Source: Nitrospirota bacterium (GTDB taxonomy: Bacteria > Nitrospirota > Nitrospiria > Nitrospirales > Nitrospiraceae). Taken from it: a stretch of 64,000 nt of DNA. Shown here in pieces: positions 15,335-25,464 of the stretch. The DNA is taken from NCBI GenBank assembly GCA_963701855.1, contig CAVPBK010000006.1, positions 96,001 through 160,000 on the forward strand, in the 5' to 3' direction. A model generated the notes under the pieces. It saw only the letters and a program-made list of their open reading frames with translations, was not told the DNA's origin and ran no database searches. Numbering within the stretch: position 1 is the first letter of the stretch; each line of letters starts with the position of its first letter. Position numbers and translations under genes: made by a program.

Positions 15335-16321
15335 TCAATGGACGTCTTGACCAGTCCTGAAAAAATCAATGATCGCCTTATTGTTTCCCGGCCATTCAGG
15401 ATGCGTTCCCGTTCCTTCGCAGTAGCGTGTTGCGACATTGTTCTTACACCCCCTGTACGTTACACAGCCCTCAGCGTCTTTTACAAGACTTGTAGCATCG
15501 CAACCATTACAGGCAGCCCACCATTGTATTGCTTCGTTACCATATCCTGGGAACAGGGTGTCATGACTACTGTGCATAACCAAAACGGGAAGCGGGTTGG
15601 GACATTGATAGGCTTTCAAGTCCTCAGCCCTGATACCCGCCGCACTCGGAGCAATCGCCGCTGGAATATGTTTGGTGCCATTGATAAAGGCTATGGCCAT
15701 AGCCGTAGTCCCGCCATCAGAATGACCGGTGAGAAAAATCCGTTTGTTGTCGATACACCATTTCTTTTCGATCAGTCCAGGTATTTCAGCAAGCTCCTCG
15801 ATCGTTTTGGGAGTCATTGTGTGGTGATCGGCATAGGCCACAATAAAACCTGCCGCCGTCGCCTCTTGCGTAAGATGCACAAAGTCTTCTGACTCATATC
15901 GATTTGTCCGCGCCGGCGCATAGACCATAAGTAACGGATGGGCAATGTTTGAATTGTAATTGACCGGCGTTTTAACCATATAGCGAATACCGGCTGATGT
16001 CTTTTCATCATTGCTGGCACCTGCATGACCGGGTTTTGTTCCTGGGTCGCAGTACTCTGTATCATTGTTGACTGTATACAAAGCCTCCCCGAGCATTTTG
16101 CCACGATTAACGGCTTCAGTATCATTCCTTCCAGCATATCGAATCGCACCCGCGCCGATAACACCCATCAGCAATACGCCTATTGCTACGGCAACAATAG
16201 TTGTTCGGTTGAGCTCTTTCTTCCCAAAGCGCACCCACTCCGGCTTCACGATACCGATAACTAACAGGGCGACCGAAAGGACAATCGTCACACTGAAGAT
16301 CATTGGAAACATTGCGTTCAT
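15335..16321 (-). CDS. Membrane-anchored PHB-depolymerase/esterase-like alpha/beta hydrolase
   Basis: CIDNKRIFLTGHSDGG nucleophile elbow, H..D and H.WPG triad-like motifs, two N-terminal TM segments. Confidence 0.8.
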   Translation of the reverse strand: MNAMFPMIFSVTIVLSVALLVIGIVKPEWVRFGKKELNRTTIVAVAIGVLLMGVIGAGAIRYAGRNDTEAVNRGKMLGEALYTVNNDTEYCDPGTKPGHAGASNDEKTSAGIRYMVKTPVNYNSNIAHPLLMVYAPARTNRYESEDFVHLTQEATAAGFIVAYADHHTMTPKTIEELAEIPGLIEKKWCIDNKRIFLTGHSDGGTTAMAIAFINGTKHIPAAIAPSAAGIRAEDLKAYQCPNPLPVLVMHSSHDTLFPGYGNEAIQWWAACNGCDATSLVKDAEGCVTYRGCKNNVATRYCEGTGTHPEWPGNNKAIIDFFRTGQDVH

Positions 16322-16399
16322 CAGTTGTACTCGCTTCTTTACGTATGAGCGGCTTCGGGGTCAGCAACTGTCCTACCGGTCAAGCCTGCCAACCCACAT

Positions 16400-16555
16400 C
16401 ATCCACGAAGGTTTACTACAACCGCCGATACGACGCTGCGACAAGTCTGACGGCAGGCTGCGCTCACCGCAGTCAGACGTCAGAGCCAGTCCCCTGGCCT
16501 CCGCGCGCCTGTCGCGTGTGACGACTGCGCGATTTCTGGGCAAGCCGTCATGAAG
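16400..16555 (-). repeat. Degenerate copy of palindromic MITE family B
   Basis: 16497-16554 is reverse-complement similar to TTCATGACGGTTCG...GAAATCGCGCAGTCG...ACAGGCGCGCGGAG of the 61532-61748 element. Confidence 0.65.
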
Positions 16556-16659
16556 ATTTTGATTCGTGGCGGATGTGACCGCAGAGAACTCACAAGCCGC
16601 GGCTGATGTGTTCGATCACCTAACATGTGGCGTCGTGTCGGATTGTGTCATCAGCTGTA

Positions 16660-17022
16660 TCAACGTCTCTTCAACAAGGCCCGAAACTCTTCCGGTATGG
16701 GCATGGACCTAAACGGATGAACATACGCACCGCCGGTATTCCCCACCGGCACCCAAATGCGTGAAAATAGCAACGCACCGATAATCCTCGCCACTTGACC
16801 GCTCATCTCTATTGGGTCCTGGCGTCTCCAGCCGACCTTCAGCATCCACCAATGCGCGTTCGCATGCGCGAATGCGAACGATTGGCTCAGGATATGCGCG
16901 CGTTCTAGGTGATAAAACGCCCTGTCCAGGTTATTGCCAGAGTAGTGCTCGGCTGCAGCATGCATCTCCTTCTCGTAGGCTTGTCTTCGTTCTGCGTGCA
17001 TTCTTCTACCCCTGGCAATCAA
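16660..17022 (-). CDS. DUF3703-like protein
   Basis: AFYHLERAHILSQ, H...H..ML, P.GNTGGA and MPIPEE motifs. Confidence 0.8.
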   Translation of the reverse strand: MIARGRRMHAERRQAYEKEMHAAAEHYSGNNLDRAFYHLERAHILSQSFAFAHANAHWWMLKVGWRRQDPIEMSGQVARIIGALLFSRIWVPVGNTGGAYVHPFRSMPIPEEFRALLKRR

Positions 17023-17129
17023 CCAGACATTGATGCCGAGAAAACTTCGGGCTCATTTACGAGCCGACTCTCGCGAATTACTCAGCCTTGGAAGCGTTCA
17101 AGGCACGGCTCAGAAACGTCTGTTTTGAA

Positions 17130-17585
17130 TCATTTTGTCGTGTCCGATGCCTGATGTTTTTCGGGTCGGATAAGATTTGGCTTTCCCTCTTCACCTATGA
17201 AGACGACCAATAATCTCAATGGTACTTCTCCTAAATTCTTTGCGCTATGCACGATGTTTACAACCTCCAGAAACCCGGTCCCGGCCTTAAATGTTTGTCG
17301 AGCGCCATCCTCAAATTCCACCGTCATTATTCCCTCAAGGACATGGACATAGGTTGGGGCCGAATGTATGTGGCGACCGTTTTCCTTTCCCGGTTGGATT
17401 TCGACCAGGACCGAAGCCATTTCTGCATTCTCAGTTTTGGGGTATTCAATCTTTTGGCCGCCGATCGTTGAAGAACTCTTCATCACAGCGGTGACTGTGA
17501 CATCTTGTGGCTCCGCCCACGCTGAGACGGTCGTTTGGACAAAGACCGTGATCAAGAAGATCGAGAAAATTGTTCTCATCGTCAT
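17130..17585 (-). CDS. Exported cupin-domain protein
   Basis: Signal peptide; HIH...VLEG...E....H cupin metal motif; GGAGG RBS. Confidence 0.85.
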   Translation of the reverse strand: MTMRTIFSIFLITVFVQTTVSAWAEPQDVTVTAVMKSSSTIGGQKIEYPKTENAEMASVLVEIQPGKENGRHIHSAPTYVHVLEGIMTVEFEDGARQTFKAGTGFLEVVNIVHSAKNLGEVPLRLLVVFIGEEGKPNLIRPEKHQASDTTK

Positions 17586-17639
17586 ACCTCCATTGCCATG
17601 TACTTTCGAACCGGGGAGAGGATATGTCCAACGCTCTTG

Positions 17640-17812
17640 AAAGCGGCAGTAAGACATCACTCAACGTCACTATCTCAATGAGCCGAGACTCCCCTTCAAC
17701 AACGGGAATGGTACCACAGTGACGGCACATCATTTTCATTACGGCCGACCGAACCGTATCTGTCTTCTTGGACGTCACGAGACCAGTTGACATGCTCGTG
17801 GACAATAGCCAC
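17640..17812 (-). pseudogene. CBS-domain protein remnant
   Basis: MSTGLVTSKKTDTVRSAVMKMMCRHCGTIPVVEGESRLIEIVTLSDVLLP is one CBS repeat; start region appears frameshifted after an AGGAGG RBS; no second repeat. Confidence 0.6.
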
Positions 17813-17891
17813 CTCCTGCTCACAATGCCACGACGACCGGGCCAGGTCACCGGCTTCCGACGAACGTTCGGCTCGTTCACGAGCAAAACAA

Positions 17892-17929
17892 CACGGGCGA
17901 CCCCGCACCATAGTAGGAGGTCGCCCGTG
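17892..17929 (-). terminator. Putative intrinsic terminator downstream of amoC
   Basis: CACGGGCGACC / GGTCGCCCGTG stem followed on the minus strand by TTGTTTTG. Confidence 0.5.
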
Positions 17930-18009
17930 GATGGCACTGAGGACACCAACAGCCTCTTTCTTCTAACCGGCCAGGTTTGTGGCCAGCTCACAGAAGCTGA
18001 CTGAAGGAT

Positions 18010-18810
18010 TTAGTACGGGATCACGTGCAAGCAGTCCTTGCTCTCGTTGTTCCAGACCACATCGCACAGGTTCGACATGCGCGCCACGATCTGCGCTGCC
18101 ACGCCGCCCGTGCCACCGAACAACCCGCACCAGCCCAGGGTCACAAACCCCCAGTGCAACGGCGCGGCAAAGAGTTCATCGACAAACCAGAACGCATGCC
18201 CCCACTCGTTGAGTCCCACGTTGGGCAGAATCATCATCGGCCCCACAACCGCCCCCACCAAGGGGAACGAGACCGCCTTGCTGAACTGCGGCAGTCGGGT
18301 CATGGCATAGAGATACCAGGATACGCCACAGGTTATGTACAACGGGAAGGTGAAGTAGAAGGCGATGATATGGCTCGCAGTAAAGCTCGTATCGCGGATG
18401 ATCACCTGGTGCCATGACGCATCCTGCTCAAGGGTGTAGCTCCCTGCCCAGTATACGCCAAACACATACACCGCGCCCCACATCATGAAGTAAAAATACC
18501 GCTTGAGTTCCGTCTTGGGATCCACGTTCGCCACGTTGCGATCCCGTGTGCTCCAAATCCACCCTATACAACTGGCCGAGAAGATGATGTTGGAAATCAC
18601 GTTAAACCGCCACAGGCCCATCCAGACGGTCTCGAACTCCGGCGTCATGGAGTCCAAACCGTGGGAATAGCCGAAGACGCGCTGAAACACGACCTCGGCA
18701 CCCACTGCCGTCAACATTGCGAACCAACCAATCTTAAGAGGCCTGGAGTCGTACCAGAGCGCCATATCATATCCGAGGTTGCTCTCACCGAATGTAGCTG
18801 TTTTTGCCAT
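18010..18810 (-). CDS. amoC: Ammonia monooxygenase subunit C, stand-alone copy (comammox Nitrospira-like)
   Basis: [64 protein letters not shown]; no amoA or amoB adjacent. Confidence 0.96.
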
Positions 18811-18954
18811 GTTCTTAACCTCCCTTCATATACTTAAGGACCACCTTTGTGGGTTGGTCCTGGACGTCTCTTCGAAAGATCTTGCCCACTATTTCCACCT
18901 CCTCCTTTCTATGAGATCCACACGGGCAACCGTCAATCCATGGCGACGTAAATG

Positions 18955-18970
18955 AGCAATTCACATTCCA
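18955..18970 (-). promoter_or_regulatory. Putative sigma-54 (-24/-12) promoter for amoC
   Basis: Minus strand TGGAATGTGAATTGCT = GG-N10-GC with TTGC, about 145 bp upstream of the amoC start. Confidence 0.65.
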
Positions 18971-19077
18971 GCAGAGATCTCGCATGACTTCGCCATCGAT
19001 GATGCTGAAAATCATCGGAGTGAGCGATTTCGTTCGAGAATTTCTGCAGCAAACAAAATGACGTGCCGAAGACGAGC

Positions 19078-19112
19078 TGCTGAATTATCAGCACGGTGCC
19101 GAAAAATCAGCT
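19078..19112. promoter_or_regulatory. Tandem palindromic activator-binding sites upstream of the amoC promoter
   Basis: TGCTGA-ATTA-TCAGCA-CGG-TGCCGA-AAAA-TCAGCT; the same motif pair occurs at 21737-21770. Confidence 0.7.
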
Positions 19113-19569
19113 TTCACTCGGAACACTCACAGGGGCTATGTGAGAAGCCAGGCAATGAATGGCGAGAGGTATCGAGCTTCTGTATTTAGGCCGGAAAAGT
19201 TTTCCGTTTCATACCAGGACCGATTGACAGGGTGGATGAACGAACACAACGTGGCGTGACGGCCGTTCTTATTCTATGTGCCGGTGCATGACGTCCAAGA
19301 TAGAGGCTTACGACACCCGTTGATAGTCAGGCTAGTGATTTTTGACGAGCATCGGGCGTATTATTGATCTCCTGTGATATGATCGAGACGCTACTATCTC
19401 CGTCGGTTGAGTGAGGTGCGCATTCGGCGACTCTCTGTTGAAGACTTGCCAGGAGCTTATGCTTCGCGCAATGACGGGACGAGAGAGAGTTCGCCAACAG
19501 GGCGACGGCCAGCCCAGCATCCCCTTTTGCTGGTCGTGACGGAACCTGCGTCTATTCAGGAGAGGACAT

Positions 19570-21580
19570 ATGAAACCCAACCTTCACAATGAAACCACTC
19601 AGTGGTCGGCCACGCCCGATGACCTCTCTCATTCCGATATTGAAGACCGTACAGGGGCCGAGACATTGCTTGCCGGAGAAAATCGCCTACTCGAGATGCT
19701 CGCCACCGGATGTACGCTCACGGAATTTCTTGACGCTTTGTGCCGACTCATCGAAGAGAGCGCGAGCGGAACTCTCTGTGGGATTGTGCTGGTAGATTCT
19801 ATCGGCAATCGGCTACAGCATGGTGCAGCGCCCAGCCTTCCTCTCAGCTACAACGAGTCGATCCATGGCAGACCGGTGAATCTCCTATCAGGTCCCTGCG
19901 CCATGGCGGTCTCTCTCAAAGAACAAGTGATTGCCGCCGATGTCGCGTCGGACACAAGATGGGATACATACAAATGGCGTACTCTGGCAATGGCACATGG
20001 GCTGCGGGCCTGTTGGTCCACGCCTATCTTGTCATCCAATGACACAGTATTGGGCGCCTTCGCAATCTACTCGCGCGAACCTGGTAGCCCTAGTGCGTAC
20101 CATCAACACCTCATCGGACAGATCACGCATCTGGCGACGGTAGCTATTGAGCATAAGCATAGGGAGGAGAAGCTCCGTCAAGACGAACGGGAGCTTCGGC
20201 GCATCACCGACGCCATCGATCAACGCATTGCTGTCCACGGGCCTGATGGAAAAATACTCTATGCGAACCGAGTGATGCTCGAATATAGCGGCCTGAGCAT
20301 GGAAGACGTCATGGCGGATGACTTTCGCGCACGGCTCGCTCATCCTGATGATTTGGAGCGATCACGGGTCGAGCGCCAGCAGGGGATCGAACGCGGAACC
20401 CCGTTTGAACTTGAGTTGCGCGCTCGCCGCAAGGACGGACAGCACCGCTGGTTTCTCGTCCGCTATAACCCGTTCCGGGACGATGAGGGACGGATCATTC
20501 GCTGGTATTCGACCGGAACCGACATCGACGACCGTAAACGAGACGAAGAGAGGACTCAAAAAGAAAACTTGGCATTGCGCGAAGAGATCGATCACTCTTC
20601 GATGTTCGAGGAAATCGTCGGTTCGTCGGAACGTCATCCGCAACATACTGAAGCAAGTCACCAAAGTGGCACCGTCGGATTCCACGGTACTCGTGCTGGG
20701 TGAGACCGGGACGGGGAAGGAGCTTATTGCCCGGGCCATTCACAAGCGCTCGAAACGGTCGTCCCGGGCGTTTATTACCGTCAATTGCGCGGCGATCCCC
20801 GCGTCGCTCATTGCCTCTGAGCTGTTCGGACACGAGAAAGGCGCGTTTACGGGTGCGATGCAACGGCGTCTCGGGCGATTTGAACTAGCCGATGGCGGGA
20901 CGATCTTCCTTGACGAAATCGGGGACCTACCGGCCGAGACTCAAATCGCTCTCCTGAGAGTCCTGCAAGAGGGAGAAATTGAACGGGTCGGCGGCAGCCA
21001 ATCGATTTCTGTGGACGTGCGCGTGCTGGCCGCCACGAACCGCGACCTGAAGGAGGCCATGGCGGCAGGCACATTTCGTCAGGATCTCTTTTACCGGCTG
21101 AATGTCTTCCCAATTCAGGTTCCCGCGTTACGCGAACGGATAGACGACATCCCGTTACTCGTCAGCTACCTGATTGAGCGCTATGCGAAGAGGGCCGGGA
21201 AACAGATTAGGAACATACAGAAAGAAACCCTGGAGTTATTTCAAGCATACGACTGGCCCGGCAACATTCGCGAGCTACAGAATGTCATCCAGCGAGCTAT
21301 CGTGCTGTGCGAGAACGAAACATTTTCCGTCGACGAGACCTGGCTGAAACGGGAGAAGCGCCGGCTGTCGGGGTCGGTGATTCCCTTAGGCGCCACGCTC
21401 GCCGAGCACGAAAAAGAAATTATTGAAGCTGCGTTGACGGATTGCGGGGGGCAGGTTAGCGGCCCAACCGGCGCCGCGGCCAAGCTCGGACTCCCAAGGC
21501 AGACACTTGAGTCGAAAATCACGGCCCTGGGAATTAACAAGCATCGGTTCAAGACCCGACAAGCCGACCATGCACGATAA
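19570..21580 (+). pseudogene. GAF-PAS-AAA+ sigma-54 activator (FhlA/NifA-like), frameshifted near 20630
   Basis: GAF (GPCAMA, ACWSTPI), PAS ([17 protein letters not shown]), FEEIVGSS in one frame; [23 protein letters not shown] and HTH continue in another frame after one extra base. Confidence 0.85.
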
Positions 21581-21736
21581 AAAGACCGTACGTTGTTTGC
21601 TCGCCAACTGTAAGAGCCGGTCTCTCGCGAATTGTTCCTTCTGGTTTAGACAGCTCCTCTGATTTCGTCCCCTCCCACCGCCTTCAACCCAATCGGTTCG
21701 GAGAATTAGAACGTCCCCTAATATTTCTGCCTCATT

Positions 21737-21770
21737 TGCCGATCATTCAGCAAATGCTGAAATTTCGGCA
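21737..21770. promoter_or_regulatory. Tandem palindromic activator-binding sites
   Basis: TGCCGA-TCAT-TCAGCA-AA-TGCTGA-AATT-TCGGCA. Confidence 0.7.
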
Positions 21771-21812
21771 GTTGCTTTCACGCCAAGTACAAGCATCTCA
21801 ATCGTTTACAAC

Positions 21813-21828
21813 TGGCCTCTTCATTGCA
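21813..21828 (+). promoter_or_regulatory. Putative sigma-54 (-24/-12) promoter for the STAS-like/ftsH arm
   Basis: TGGCCTCTTCATTGCA = GG-N10-GC with TTGCA, 36 bp before the next ORF. Confidence 0.7.
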
Positions 21829-21863
21829 CTAGTTTTATATCGTTCAGGTCGCAGAGGTCACAG

Positions 21864-22130
21864 ATGACAATAAAGTTTGAAAAAGAAACCCGCCGTCTCA
21901 AGACGATGATTTGTCTGAGCGGTCGGCTGCAAGCGAGACATCTGGAGGAATTGAAGAGGCAAATGGAAGGAACTCGGTCGCGAATTGCGCTGGACCTCAA
22001 CGGAGTGACGCTCGTGGATGTCGAGATAATTCGATTTCTGAACGCCTGTGAGAAATGCGGTGTCGAGCTCCTCAATTGCTGGCCGTACATACGGGAGTGG
22101 ATGATCTGTGAGAAAGGCAGGGAAGGATAA
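21864..22130 (+). CDS. Small STAS-like protein
   Basis: LSGRL...LDLNGVTLVD...IRFL pattern; GAGG RBS; directly after the sigma-54 promoter. Confidence 0.65.
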   Translation: MTIKFEKETRRLKTMICLSGRLQARHLEELKRQMEGTRSRIALDLNGVTLVDVEIIRFLNACEKCGVELLNCWPYIREWMICEKGREG

Positions 22131-22183: not shown

Positions 22184-22300
22184 ATGCCAAATATTACTGT
22201 TCAAAATGGAGATCACACCATGAAGCACATCATTTTCTTCATTCTTGGTGCCGTGATTCTTATTGGTCTGGTACTGGCTACTGGTCTCCTCAGACCCTAA
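22184..22300 (+). CDS. Putative 38-aa single-TM micropeptide (or frameshifted secreted protein)
   Basis: AAGGAGG RBS; MPNITVQNGDHTMKHIIFFILGAVILIGLVLATGLLRP*; not in the ORF track. Confidence 0.4.
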   Translation: MPNITVQNGDHTMKHIIFFILGAVILIGLVLATGLLRP

Positions 22301-22466: not shown

Positions 22467-24287
22467 ATGCCAGTGAATAAAAAAATATCCTTTTCGGTCC
22501 TGTGTGTCTTTCTCACGATTGGGGCAGTCATGTTCGTGCACAATTTCATCACGCCCATGCAGATGCTTGAAGAGCTTCCGTATAGCGAATTTAAGGCGCT
22601 CCTGGCGGACGGCAATGTGGCGGAGGTCACGGTCACTCGTCAGTCATTGCTCGGGAAACTGAAGCCGGAAGAAGGATCAAAAGAACCGAAGCTGTTTACG
22701 ACTGTCCGGGTTGAAGATCCTGATTTAGTCAAGGAACTCAACGTACGCAACGTCAAGTTCACCGGCATGATTGAGAATACGTTCTTGCGAGATATCATGT
22801 GGTGGGTCATTCCTGCGCTAATCTTTGGCGGTATCTGGTTTTTTGTGATTCGGCGCCTCGGTCAGGGGCTTGGACAGGGTCAAAAAGGGTTCATGACCGT
22901 GGGGAAGTCGAAGGCGAAGATCTATGCGGAGAAGGATACGAAAGTGACTTTCGCGGATGTAGCCGGCGTGGAGGAGGCGAAGGAAGAACTGGGCGAGGTG
23001 ATTGATTTTCTCAAGACGCCGGAAAAATTCACGCGTCTCGGAGGAAAGATTCCGAAAGGCATCCTGCTCGTCGGTCCGCCTGGAACCGGCAAGACGCTCC
23101 TGGCTCGCGCTGTGGCAGGAGAGGCAGGCGTGACGTTTTTCAGCATCAGCGGGTCCGAGTTTGTGGAAATGTTTGTGGGAGTGGGGGCCTCCCGCGTGCG
23201 AGATCTGTTCGAGCAGGCGAAGATCAAGGCACCCTGTATTATCTTCATCGACGAACTGGATGCGTTGGGAAAAGCCCGTGGGGCAGGACCCATGGCGCAT
23301 GAGGAGCGTGAACAAACCCTGAATCAGTTGCTGGTCGAGATGGACGGCTTTGATCCCCGCATCGCCGTCATTCTGATGGCGGCGACCAATCGGCCTGAAA
23401 TCTTGGATCCTGCACTGTTGCGGCCAGGCCGGTTCGACAGGCAAGTCTTGGTCGATCGCCCGGATAAGATCGACCGTCTGGCCATCTTGCGCGTTCATGC
23501 CAAGAAGGTAACCCTCGGTCTCGATGCGGACCTCGAGGTGATCGCTGGGATGACCCCAGGATTCTCAGGCGCCGACCTCGCCAATATCGTCAATGAAGCA
23601 ACGCTCTTGGCTGTGCGCCGGAATAAAGGGCAGGTGGGTCTCCCAGAATTGCAGGAAGCGGTGGAGCGGGTCGTCGCCGGGTTGGAGAAGAAAAACCGAG
23701 TCCTCAACAAGATGGAGAAGGAACGCGTCGCCTACCATGAAGTGGGCCACGCCTTGGTAGCGTTGTCGTTTCCTGGCTCAGACCCGATACAGAAGATCTC
23801 CATCATTCCTCGCGGGATTGCTGCCTTGGGTTATACCCTGCAGCTTCCGACGGAGGATCGCTTTCTGATGGCCAAGACGGAGTTGGAAAACAAAATTGCC
23901 GTCTTACTCGGAGGGCGGAATGCGGAAGAATTGATCTTCGGCGAGGCCTCCACGGGCGCACAGAACGACTTGGTCAGGGCCACGGACATTGCCAAGAGCA
24001 TGGTCAAATCCTACGGGATGAGCGAAAAGCTAGGCACCGTTACCCTGAATCGTGAACGCCAGCCTCTCATCATGCAGATTCAGGCGCCTCAGGAAAAAGG
24101 CGACTACTCTGAGGAGACCGCCCGCGAGATCGACTGTGAAGTGCGCCGTATCATCGACGAGCAATACGATCGCGTGAGATGGCTCTTAGCTGAAAAGAAA
24201 CGCGCACTCGTAGAAGGAGCAAGAGCCCTGCTCGATCGCGAGGTAATCAGTGGTAGTGAGCTTAAAGTCATCATGGACAATCACTGA
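22467..24287 (+). CDS. ftsH: ATP-dependent zinc metalloprotease FtsH (probable paralog)
   Basis: Two TMs, [17 protein letters not shown] motif (RPGRFDR), HEVGH zinc motif. Confidence 0.96.
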
Positions 24288-24390: not shown

Positions 24391-24633
24391 ATGAGGTGCG
24401 CACGCTGTGATGGATTGATGGTGCATGAGACGTTTGAAGACCTTATAGGACTCGGGTCAGGTGACCATGAGTATGCCGGATGGCGCTGCATCAACTGTGG
24501 GGCGATTGTCGATCCCGTGATTCCTGCACATCAATGTCTCACGTCGCAGACAGCAGCGACTAATCCGGCATTGCACGCTGTCTCCTTAGTCTCAAGGGCC
24601 AGACCCAGCAGAAGCAGACGATCAACATGGTGA
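24391..24633 (+). CDS. Small zinc-ribbon protein
   Basis: MRCARCDGLM...WRCINCGAIVD; AAGGAG RBS. Confidence 0.7.
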   Translation: MRCARCDGLMVHETFEDLIGLGSGDHEYAGWRCINCGAIVDPVIPAHQCLTSQTAATNPALHAVSLVSRARPSRSRRSTW

Positions 24634-24882
24634 TCCAATGATACCCGATAACCACGCAGAGATACGGAGACCGGTTTCTTCTACTCGTTTGGATGGCGCC
24701 GCAGCTCTGCACGGCGTCTCCCGCTGAGGTGGGCAGGCCTCTCCTTACACCCCGGAGGGGCCTGTCTCTTCAGTGAACAATCAGAAGCGGATGACAAGAA
24801 TGAAGGAGCGGGACTGTCGGAAGTGATGAGGAGGGCAGCATGGACCAGAATTTAGCAAGGTCCCAAAACAGGGAGGTTGGCC

Positions 24883-25464
24883 ATGATTAAGCAAATGACA
24901 CGAGCAGGTTCTATGGTGCTCCTTCTTGTTGCCACGCTGCACCTCGGCTTAGCCGCTGCGCATGGAGGAGCGGATTTGGAATTAGACCCTTGCGTGCGCT
25001 GGGTCGGTGAAAGCGCAGTGCATTTCAGTACCTACCAGCCGCAGTATGAACTGAAAGCTCAATACTGCACAGACATTCCCAAGACAGGCGAGACCTTCCT
25101 GGTCGTGGACCTCGTGGACCCGGCATTGCGTAACGTGCCGGTCGGCATGCGAATCGTGAAGGGGAACGGAAACAATGAGGCAGAAGTTCAGACGGTGGCA
25201 GACTGGCGTCCAAGCCATCACCCGGCCGGAGTAATCAGTGGAGAAACCAATCTGGATGAGGGTCTGTACAGAGTCATCATTACAGCGGAGGGGCGGAATC
25301 CTTTGCGCTATCAGTATCTCTTGCGTGTACAGATGATCGATTATCAGAAGTTGGTGAATTCCGTGGTGGTACCACTGCTCGGCGTACTGTTATGCGCCTG
25401 GCTGGGGTACAAGCTCCTACGATCGAAGTGGCTGCGGAATCGGTGGGCAGGCGTCCGTTCGTAG
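24883..25464 (+). CDS. amoD: AmoD/AmoE (PmoD)-family periplasmic copper protein with C-terminal TM anchor
   Basis: Signal peptide then AHGG; D.C...G...HFSTYQPQ, YCTDIP.TG.T.LVVDLVD..LR..PV signature; C-terminal TM; GGAGG RBS. amoD vs amoE not resolved. Confidence 0.8.
   Translation: MIKQMTRAGSMVLLLVATLHLGLAAAHGGADLELDPCVRWVGESAVHFSTYQPQYELKAQYCTDIPKTGETFLVVDLVDPALRNVPVGMRIVKGNGNNEAEVQTVADWRPSHHPAGVISGETNLDEGLYRVIITAEGRNPLRYQYLLRVQMIDYQKLVNSVVVPLLGVLLCAWLGYKLLRSKWLRNRWAGVRS

Follow-up and report, generated by a model that had tools for sequence, protein, structure and literature searches.

Why ammonia oxidisers carry extra copies of amoC, the gene for the ammonia monooxygenase (AMO) subunit that holds conserved copper sites, and how AMO genes are regulated in comammox bacteria are largely open questions, and the extra copies are usually seen as interchangeable. 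A 64,000-nucleotide stretch of a Nitrospirota genome (GCA_963701855.1, contig CAVPBK010000006.1, positions 96,001 to 160,000; hereafter the window) contains a stand-alone amoC beside the gene for an FhlA-like sigma-54 activator. Two divergent sigma-54-type promoters lie on either side of the activator gene, one facing leftwards to amoC and the other rightwards to a gene for a STAS-like protein and those behind it. The source is a clade B comammox Nitrospira, represented by a 4.3 Mb, 97%-complete assembly with four amoC, one amoAB and hao at C5:125749. The module is also found in CG24A, CG24C and CG24E, assigned to clade B in a passage of bioRxiv 10.1101/138586, with proteins 76-93% identical. 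The features described below suggest that the locus is probably a sigma-54 regulon in which one FhlA-like activator induces a spare AmoC, a PmoD-like protein and often FtsH from the two promoters, and that the neighbouring activator quite likely drives both arms.

All four 16-bp palindromes and both -24/-12 boxes of the original prediction are present where it had placed them, the palindromes forming one tandem enhancer for each promoter (Table 1). A genome-wide frequency check of the motif, which that prediction had proposed, gave different answers for lone and paired sites. Single exact matches to the consensus TGCYGA-N4-TCRGCA occur 5 times against 4.3 expected, and exact sites with other spacer lengths occur 1-9 times; lone palindromes are thus at background frequency and were dropped as evidence, so that only tandems count. 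Tandem pairs (<=1 mismatch per site, 16-24 bp spacing) are far above chance, with 4 in the genome against 0.014 expected and none at five control offsets across the whole genome. A weight matrix trained on 180 sites from other genomes recovered exactly the same 4 tandems, and all 4 are followed by TGG-N8-TTGC at 42, 95, 107 or 108 bp, for which the chance is about 1.7% per site. There are also five weaker tandem matches, four of them copies of one repeated coding sequence (by eye an IS110-like transposase) and the fifth unexplained; the weight matrix recovers none of the five.

The same design recurs in other phyla. A scan of species genomes yielded at least 120 stretches, of which 80 were taken with their flanks, some overlapping or repeating genomes of the genus; these loci span Nitrospirota, Acidobacteriota, Deltaproteobacteria, Gemmatimonadota, Verrucomicrobia, Gammaproteobacteria and others. 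Among the matches listed, TGG-N8-TTGC lies 20-170 bp from the tandem in 51/80 loci, a gene for a bacterial enhancer-binding protein (bEBP) is present within 41/80, and the distances between enhancer and box cluster at 41-45 and 106-110 bp. The box was found in none of the control windows 1 kb away, short loci having no such window. Short-type promoters pair with activators whose helix-turn-helix (HTH) reads LG(L/I)PRQTLESK, and long-type promoters with multi-GAF activators with the HTH LGMKRTTLQSK. Judged from these associations, the motif appears to serve two classes of FhlA-like activators as a generic enhancer in several phyla.

Footprinting by alignment separates the predicted regulatory elements from the surrounding sequence. 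In the amoC arm (20 rows), no variation is seen in 21 of 24 palindrome-arm columns and 8/8 box core columns, the background being invariant in 92 of 372 columns; the corresponding values for the right arm (27 rows) are 19/24, 7/8 and 13/242. The commonest substitutions in the palindromes are TGCC/TGCT or TCGG/TCAG exchanges. Together with the fixed enhancer-promoter spacing across phyla, this argues for the predicted sigma-54 control of the stand-alone amoC and for an enhancer in common with the right arm. Further support comes from the GAFTGA loop and C-terminal HTH of the activator, both intact, from an intact rpoN (C4:154266-155741, TIGR02395 above cut-off, no stops) and from a site next to the right box that resembles WATCAA-N4-TTR, the consensus for integration host factor (IHF). 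At an offset of 25-26, sites with <=1 mismatch to it occur in 38 of 58 unique short-type gaps versus 1.3 in shuffles, and exact sites in 13 of the 58 versus 0.09; the genome has five genes of the IHF/HU family. On the left, the invariant TTTCAGCA aligns with TTTCAA/TTTCAG-N4-TTA in related long-type promoters and may be a third half-site for the activator or else a bend site of IHF type in degenerate form.

Within the genus, we examined 44 genomes picked for holding the activator or the promoter. The left arm, with enhancer, box at 103-110 bp and amoC, is complete in 25 of these; it is interrupted by N gaps in 2, by a contig end after the promoter in 1 and by a contig end before the left arm in 9. 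The right enhancer, a box at 42-43 bp and the STAS-like gene are present in 39/39 visible loci, this gene being the usual first one behind short-type promoters and occurring in other phyla too. The activator was found in 40 of 61 amoC-positive but only 1 of 24 amoC-negative genomes of the genus, and outside the genus only HTH matches of 62-72% were obtained, in 6/191 genomes; by these matches it appears nearly confined to the comammox members. Exact tandems occur in 36/61 genus genomes and 19/222 other family genomes, which are kin and not independent, and the reversed control gave 0. Median ratios of nonsynonymous to synonymous substitutions (dN/dS) for 77 pairs of 13 activator orthologues were 0.10 for the GAF, 0.18 for the PAS and 0.10 for the AAA+HTH part, indicative of purifying selection.

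The control does not seem to extend to the other AMO genes. The scan proposed with the original prediction, covering the regions upstream of the main amoCAB and of hao, found no tandem at either; the other three amoC copies, that of amoCAB among them, also lack a tandem and by eye have boxes of the TTGACA type. Among relatives, the 5' end of amoC was visible in 11 of 30 amoA loci, and 7 of the 11 have a TTGACA-N18-TAATCT/TACTCT box upstream, as in the amoCAB of the window genome; another sigma-70-type box was seen in 2, neither type in 1 and a sigma-54 promoter in 1. A regulation limited to the stand-alone amoC, excluding amoCAB and hao, is thereby supported, and since the main amoCAB is under a sigma-70-type promoter, the sigma-54 copy would be an inducible add-on. 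Its product is 89-93% identical to the other three AmoC proteins of the genome and has DxxxH-x12-H and NxxxH-x13-H, the copper-ligand patterns of PmoC.

Several observations weigh against the proposed regulon. The genus counts come from related, non-independent genomes selected for the very activator or promoter being counted; 5/44 keep the activator and right arm without the left enhancer or amoC, 1/44 has the promoter without amoC and 1/44 has an enhancer-like site only. Both -24 elements (TGGAAT, TGGCCT) deviate from the YGGCR consensus cited in a passage of PMC12403871. Searches for a ligand of the GAF and PAS domains (PDB, homologue and Atlas) gave generic PAS/LOV-like and GAF matches only, and in other phyla the short-type module precedes, by eye, reductase, dehydrogenase, cupin and AraC-type genes. 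The sigma-54-driven AmoC copies do not form one clade in a tree of 37 copies with many poorly resolved forks, and in five genomes their identity to the genome's own amoCAB copy is 93-99%, for which reasons we do not regard the protein as specialised. A divergent lineage of the AmoC3 type is ruled out by the lack of a single clade and the identity among paralogues, and it appears from the comparisons to be the promoter, not the protein, that defines the stand-alone copy. The membership of ftsH is likewise inconstant, as the gene is present in 19/36 visible right arms and absent from 17/36. The prediction that amoC and an "ftsH arm" form one regulon therefore keeps its core, the shared design of the two arms, but the fixed cargo on the right is the STAS-like gene, the Cys ORF (open reading frame) and, in 34/34 visible right arms, the PmoD-like gene, whereas only about half of the loci have ftsH.

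A further objection is that the activator is frameshifted in the source assembly, one extra base near 20630 splitting the ORF, a feature not mentioned in the original prediction. In related loci seen whole, the activator is a single ORF of 662-793 aa in 21/22 cases (7 partial loci excluded; L014 is broken elsewhere). Base 20630 is missing from contigs of three other DNA samples, one of which has a single other difference from the window in 276 bases. Because such near-identical contigs lack the extra base, the frameshift is probably a sequencing or assembly error, the alternative being a strain-private mutation.

Table 1. Coordinates of the features of the locus, in window positions unless a contig is given (RBS, ribosome-binding site; aa, amino acids).
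Feature	Position	Strand	Remarks
Genes behind amoC	15335..17991	minus	CBS remnant, cupin, DUF3703, 328-aa PHB (polyhydroxybutyrate)-depolymerase-like hydrolase
Stand-alone amoC	18010..18810	minus	266 aa; first long left-arm gene; PF04896 E=6e-104
Leader ORF	18815..18889	minus	24 aa, own RBS, ends at amoC RBS; GTG here, ATG in most relatives
Sigma-54 -24/-12 box TGGAATGTGAATTGCT	18955..18970	minus	TGG-N8-TTGC, faces amoC; predicted start near 18944
Invariant TTTCAGCA	19003..19010	minus	Between left enhancer and amoC box; same in 20 rows
Left tandem enhancer	19078..19112		Pair of 16-bp palindromes 3 bp apart; amoC promoter at 107 bp
Left palindrome 1 TGCTGAATTATCAGCA	19078-19093		
Left palindrome 2 TGCCGAAAAATCAGCT	19097-19112		1 mismatch to consensus
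Sigma-54 activator	19570..21580	plus	GAF-PAS-AAA+-HTH, FhlA-like; ~669 aa when intact (Pfam)
Right tandem enhancer	21737..21770		Two palindromes, 2-bp gap; 42 bp from right promoter
Right palindrome 1 TGCCGATCATTCAGCA	21737-21752		
Right palindrome 2 TGCTGAAATTTCGGCA	21755-21770		
IHF-type site	21796..21808	plus	Immediately 5' of right -24 element; 1 mismatch to WATCAA-N4-TTR
Sigma-54 -24/-12 box TGGCCTCTTCATTGCA	21813..21828	plus	TGG-N8-TTGC, faces right arm; predicted start near 21839
STAS-like small protein	21864..22130	plus	88 aa; PF13466 E=9e-5, under cut-off
Hydrophobic ORF	22184..22300	plus	38 aa; homologue at 68% in L169
ftsH membrane protease	22467..24287	plus	TIGR01241 above cut-off; optional right-arm member
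Small Cys-rich ORF	24391..24633	plus	Nitrospirota-wide unnamed family; only unnamed clusters matched
PmoD/AmoD-family copper protein	24877..25464	plus	195 aa; PmoD 6cpd E=2.3e-8
Paralogous activator	C6:1086879-1089470 region		Intact, 864 aa, 3xGAF, HTH LGMKRTTLQSK

A second activator complicates the assignment. The other two tandems with sigma-54 boxes (C6:1086765 and C6:1079041; L003:14766 and 7042) lie behind the intact long-type paralogue. They are followed by a Cys ORF and, in the operon of the paralogue, by a second PmoD-like gene, genes for a methyltransferase and TetR, and two sets of RND efflux genes, an arrangement that recurs in many clade B genomes. Since the same motif thus lies beside both activator classes, either protein may read the amoC site, and the promoters could be real sigma-54 promoters of which that of amoC is read mainly by the multi-GAF paralogue, implying different signals or both activators. 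We consider this unlikely, even though the 107 bp between the amoC enhancer and its box can be aligned with the promoter of the paralogue itself (score 88 vs 28.8 +/- 6.4; 0/2000 shuffles), amoC promoter DNA matches promoters beside long-type activators in many genomes, and it is the paralogue that is intact in the source genome and the neighbouring activator that is frameshifted. The half-sites point the other way, towards the neighbouring class: TGCTGA/TCAGCA arms account for 32/44 positions in amoC sites, 73/184 in short-type sites and 3/80 in other long-type sites. Moreover, the amoC promoter and the neighbouring activator are linked in 28 loci, and G002 (94% complete) and G084 (99%) keep both while giving no match to the paralogue HTH, although draft genomes can miss genes. 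From the alignment, the half-site composition and these two genomes we infer that the amoC promoter is a captured long-type promoter, which would have been copied from that of the paralogue and then have drifted towards the half-site pattern of the neighbouring activator. Cross-talk between the two activators at this promoter is possible.

It is less probable still that the module serves redox or envelope stress in general and that a spare amoC merely landed behind a ready-made promoter, with no role in AMO maintenance. Elsewhere the module controls genes for dehydrogenases, reductases, cupins and efflux pumps, the left-arm amoC is missing in 7/44 genomes, and AmoC copies are patchily homogenised, all of which would fit such an origin. 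It is hard to reconcile with an amoC linkage kept in 25 genomes while left-promoter identity falls to about 73%, with an activator nearly confined to amoC-positive genomes, and with the constant PmoD-family gene on the right arm, this family being reported only from genomes with copper membrane monooxygenases (CuMMOs) in the part of PMC6189053 that deals with it. We regard as very improbable a third view, in which the palindromes act as repressor operators or hairpins or match by chance, and some other promoter serves amoC. Single exact sites do occur at background frequency, the -24 elements are non-consensus and the score of one palindrome is that of a weak stem resembling a terminator, but the tandem statistics, the conservation, the IHF-type site and the constant distance to GG-N10-GC boxes in different phyla all speak against this view, and no sigma-70-like promoter was found upstream of the stand-alone amoC, unlike the other three copies.

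Under the preferred reading, a sigma-54 regulon governed by the neighbouring activator, the switch would follow general bEBP biology, in which the activator binds an enhancer, IHF loops the DNA, and ATP-driven remodelling opens the closed complex of sigma-54. Activator dimers would bind the paired TGCYGA-N4-TCRGCA sites, IHF would bend the intervening DNA and the AAA+ domain would open the closed complex. Leftward transcription would then yield a spare, catalytically complete AmoC, and rightward transcription the STAS-like protein, often FtsH, the Cys ORF and the PmoD-family copper protein; the activator gene itself lies outside both predicted transcripts. Most likely, the cell would in this way obtain AmoC as a replacement, together with a copper-handling accessory and a membrane protease, during redox or envelope stress. 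Whether AMO upkeep under stress is the purpose is close to an even question, tilting slightly towards no. We advance more tentatively the fuller proposal of a dedicated sigma-54 "AMO repair" regulon in clade B comammox, in which damaged AmoC would be degraded and swapped without remaking the whole enzyme. One sensor-activator would co-induce replacement AmoC together with FtsH and a copper carrier of the PmoD family, the enhancer code would be shared by a sister activator that has a PmoD-like gene of its own, and the promoter would perhaps have spread over amoCAB in some lineages (G011).

The soluble methane monooxygenase operon, which encodes a di-iron enzyme, is controlled by the sigma-54 activator MmoR. 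There too a sigma-54 activator adjoins a monooxygenase gene, but the target here is the gene for just one subunit of a membrane-bound copper monooxygenase. In Methylosinus sporium, according to a passage of PMC12403871, the promoters of methane-metabolism genes are mainly of the RpoD type, and nitrogen genes are where the RpoN motif was found. The elements of the present locus resemble the known combination of a bEBP, an upstream activator sequence, IHF and a sigma-54 promoter, with FhlA-like activators such as E. coli FhlA and HyfR: a GAF-containing AAA+-HTH activator with GAFTGA (the criterion is from PMC3162934), paired palindromes, an IHF-type site and a -24/-12 box. They differ in the GAF-PAS sensor and in the targets, which are amoC, the PmoD-like gene and ftsH, not formate hydrogenlyase genes. 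FhlA is the best NCBIfam match of the activator, but its AAA-HTH part scores 363 bits and the intact paralogue 607, below the cut-off of 830; with this equivalog score and these targets, we rejected an identification as FhlA itself. Nitrospira fhlA genes are assumed to control formate hydrogenlyase in the relevant passage of PMC5596200.

Two further systems combine a lone subunit gene with features seen here. The singleton amoC3 of Nitrosomonas europaea is described in parts of PMC6311188 and PMC13058606 as being under sigma-32 control and induced by stress, with 67.5% identity to AmoC1/2; a subunit of this type would respond to starvation recovery, heat or oxidative stress. It is likewise a non-operonal amoC under an alternative sigma factor, separate from amoCAB, but for the present copy the box is of sigma-54 type, there is a dedicated activator, and the identity to its paralogues is 89-93%. 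In Methylocystis strains SC2 and Rockwell a monocistronic pmoC lies beside ftsH, and membrane quality control was proposed (PMC3794950, in a passage that describes no regulator). The link between a lone xmoC and ftsH is shared, but the genes are directly adjacent there, whereas in the present locus they are placed on the two sides of the activator gene, with ftsH as an optional member. In the literature covered, where subscription journals are poorly represented, we found no sigma-54-driven amoC and no description of TGCYGA-N4-TCRGCA. Thus the design of the predicted switch is conventional and its target, amoC, unreported; by the sequence comparisons the feature is real and conserved.

The PmoD-like protein has homology to PmoD 6cpd and both invariant cysteines of the PmoD/AmoD/AmoE family, and is 65% identical to the product of a gene beside the amo accessory cluster. 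It was excluded from the CuA-forming PmoD/AmoE subclass (Cx7MxHxnC) by its Cx9HxnC motif, which has no Met; in addition, its gene lies behind a sigma-54 promoter outside the amo operon. The part of PMC6189053 on this family reports that the Cx9HxnC class does not form a CuA site and that some family members lie near lone pmoC genes. The small Cys-rich ORF of CxxC type has >10 paralogues in the genome and is found behind both promoter types. The ftsH of the right arm is the sole ftsH found in the 97%-complete assembly; a canonical housekeeping-type ftsH, as in relative L112, was not found there.

On the left, the genes behind amoC are inferred to be co-transcribed with it. The PHB-depolymerase-like hydrolase (15335-16321), which is membrane-anchored, follows amoC in most loci, lies beside the PmoD-like gene in others and stands directly behind the left promoter in G081. 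The leader has a 24-27 aa frame in 14/20 rows, no start was found in 5 and the frame differs in 1; it is possibly vestigial. A further strong RBS lies within 18815-18900, and a similar leader precedes the sigma-70-type amoC at C15:60074.

Variants of the module occur among the relatives. Duplicated right-arm promoters or whole modules were seen at L272 (G040:C59), L269 (G004:C29) and L174 (G009:C16) and in G077, and in G040 a second STAS/PmoD-like arm faces amoC. Further long-type promoter copies very similar to the amoC promoter are present at L160, L163, L165, L166 and L167. In one RNA run (X15), relatives are represented by contigs that cover amoC, the activator and ftsH; these were not used as evidence because contigs cannot show start, strand, level or amoC copy.

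The region upstream of the main operon also varies. An IS1595-family transposase-like gene lies between copD and the amoCAB promoter (L002:6488-7408), in relatives too. In G011 (L175/L202, G011:C149) and G051 (L164, G051:C9) a full amoC-amoA-amoB set stands behind the sigma-54 promoter, and its amoA is the sole one of each draft. That in G051 is probably a mis-join across the amoC repeat, because the usual copD-IS1595-amoC stub is also present at a contig end, and an apparent case in G004 is explained by an N gap. The usual sigma-70 upstream region was not found in the G011 draft, and the promoter may have taken over amoCAB in some lineages such as this.

For the biology of these organisms, the amoC copies of this genome would not be interchangeable, in that they differ by promoter, not by protein, three being of sigma-70 type and one of sigma-54 type with an activator and a defined candidate site. 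Their unique 5' untranslated regions are copy-specific markers that could be used in metatranscriptomes of clade B populations from soil and groundwater, and TGCYGA-N4-TCRGCA is a candidate binding motif for two widespread, uncharacterised classes of FhlA-like activators.

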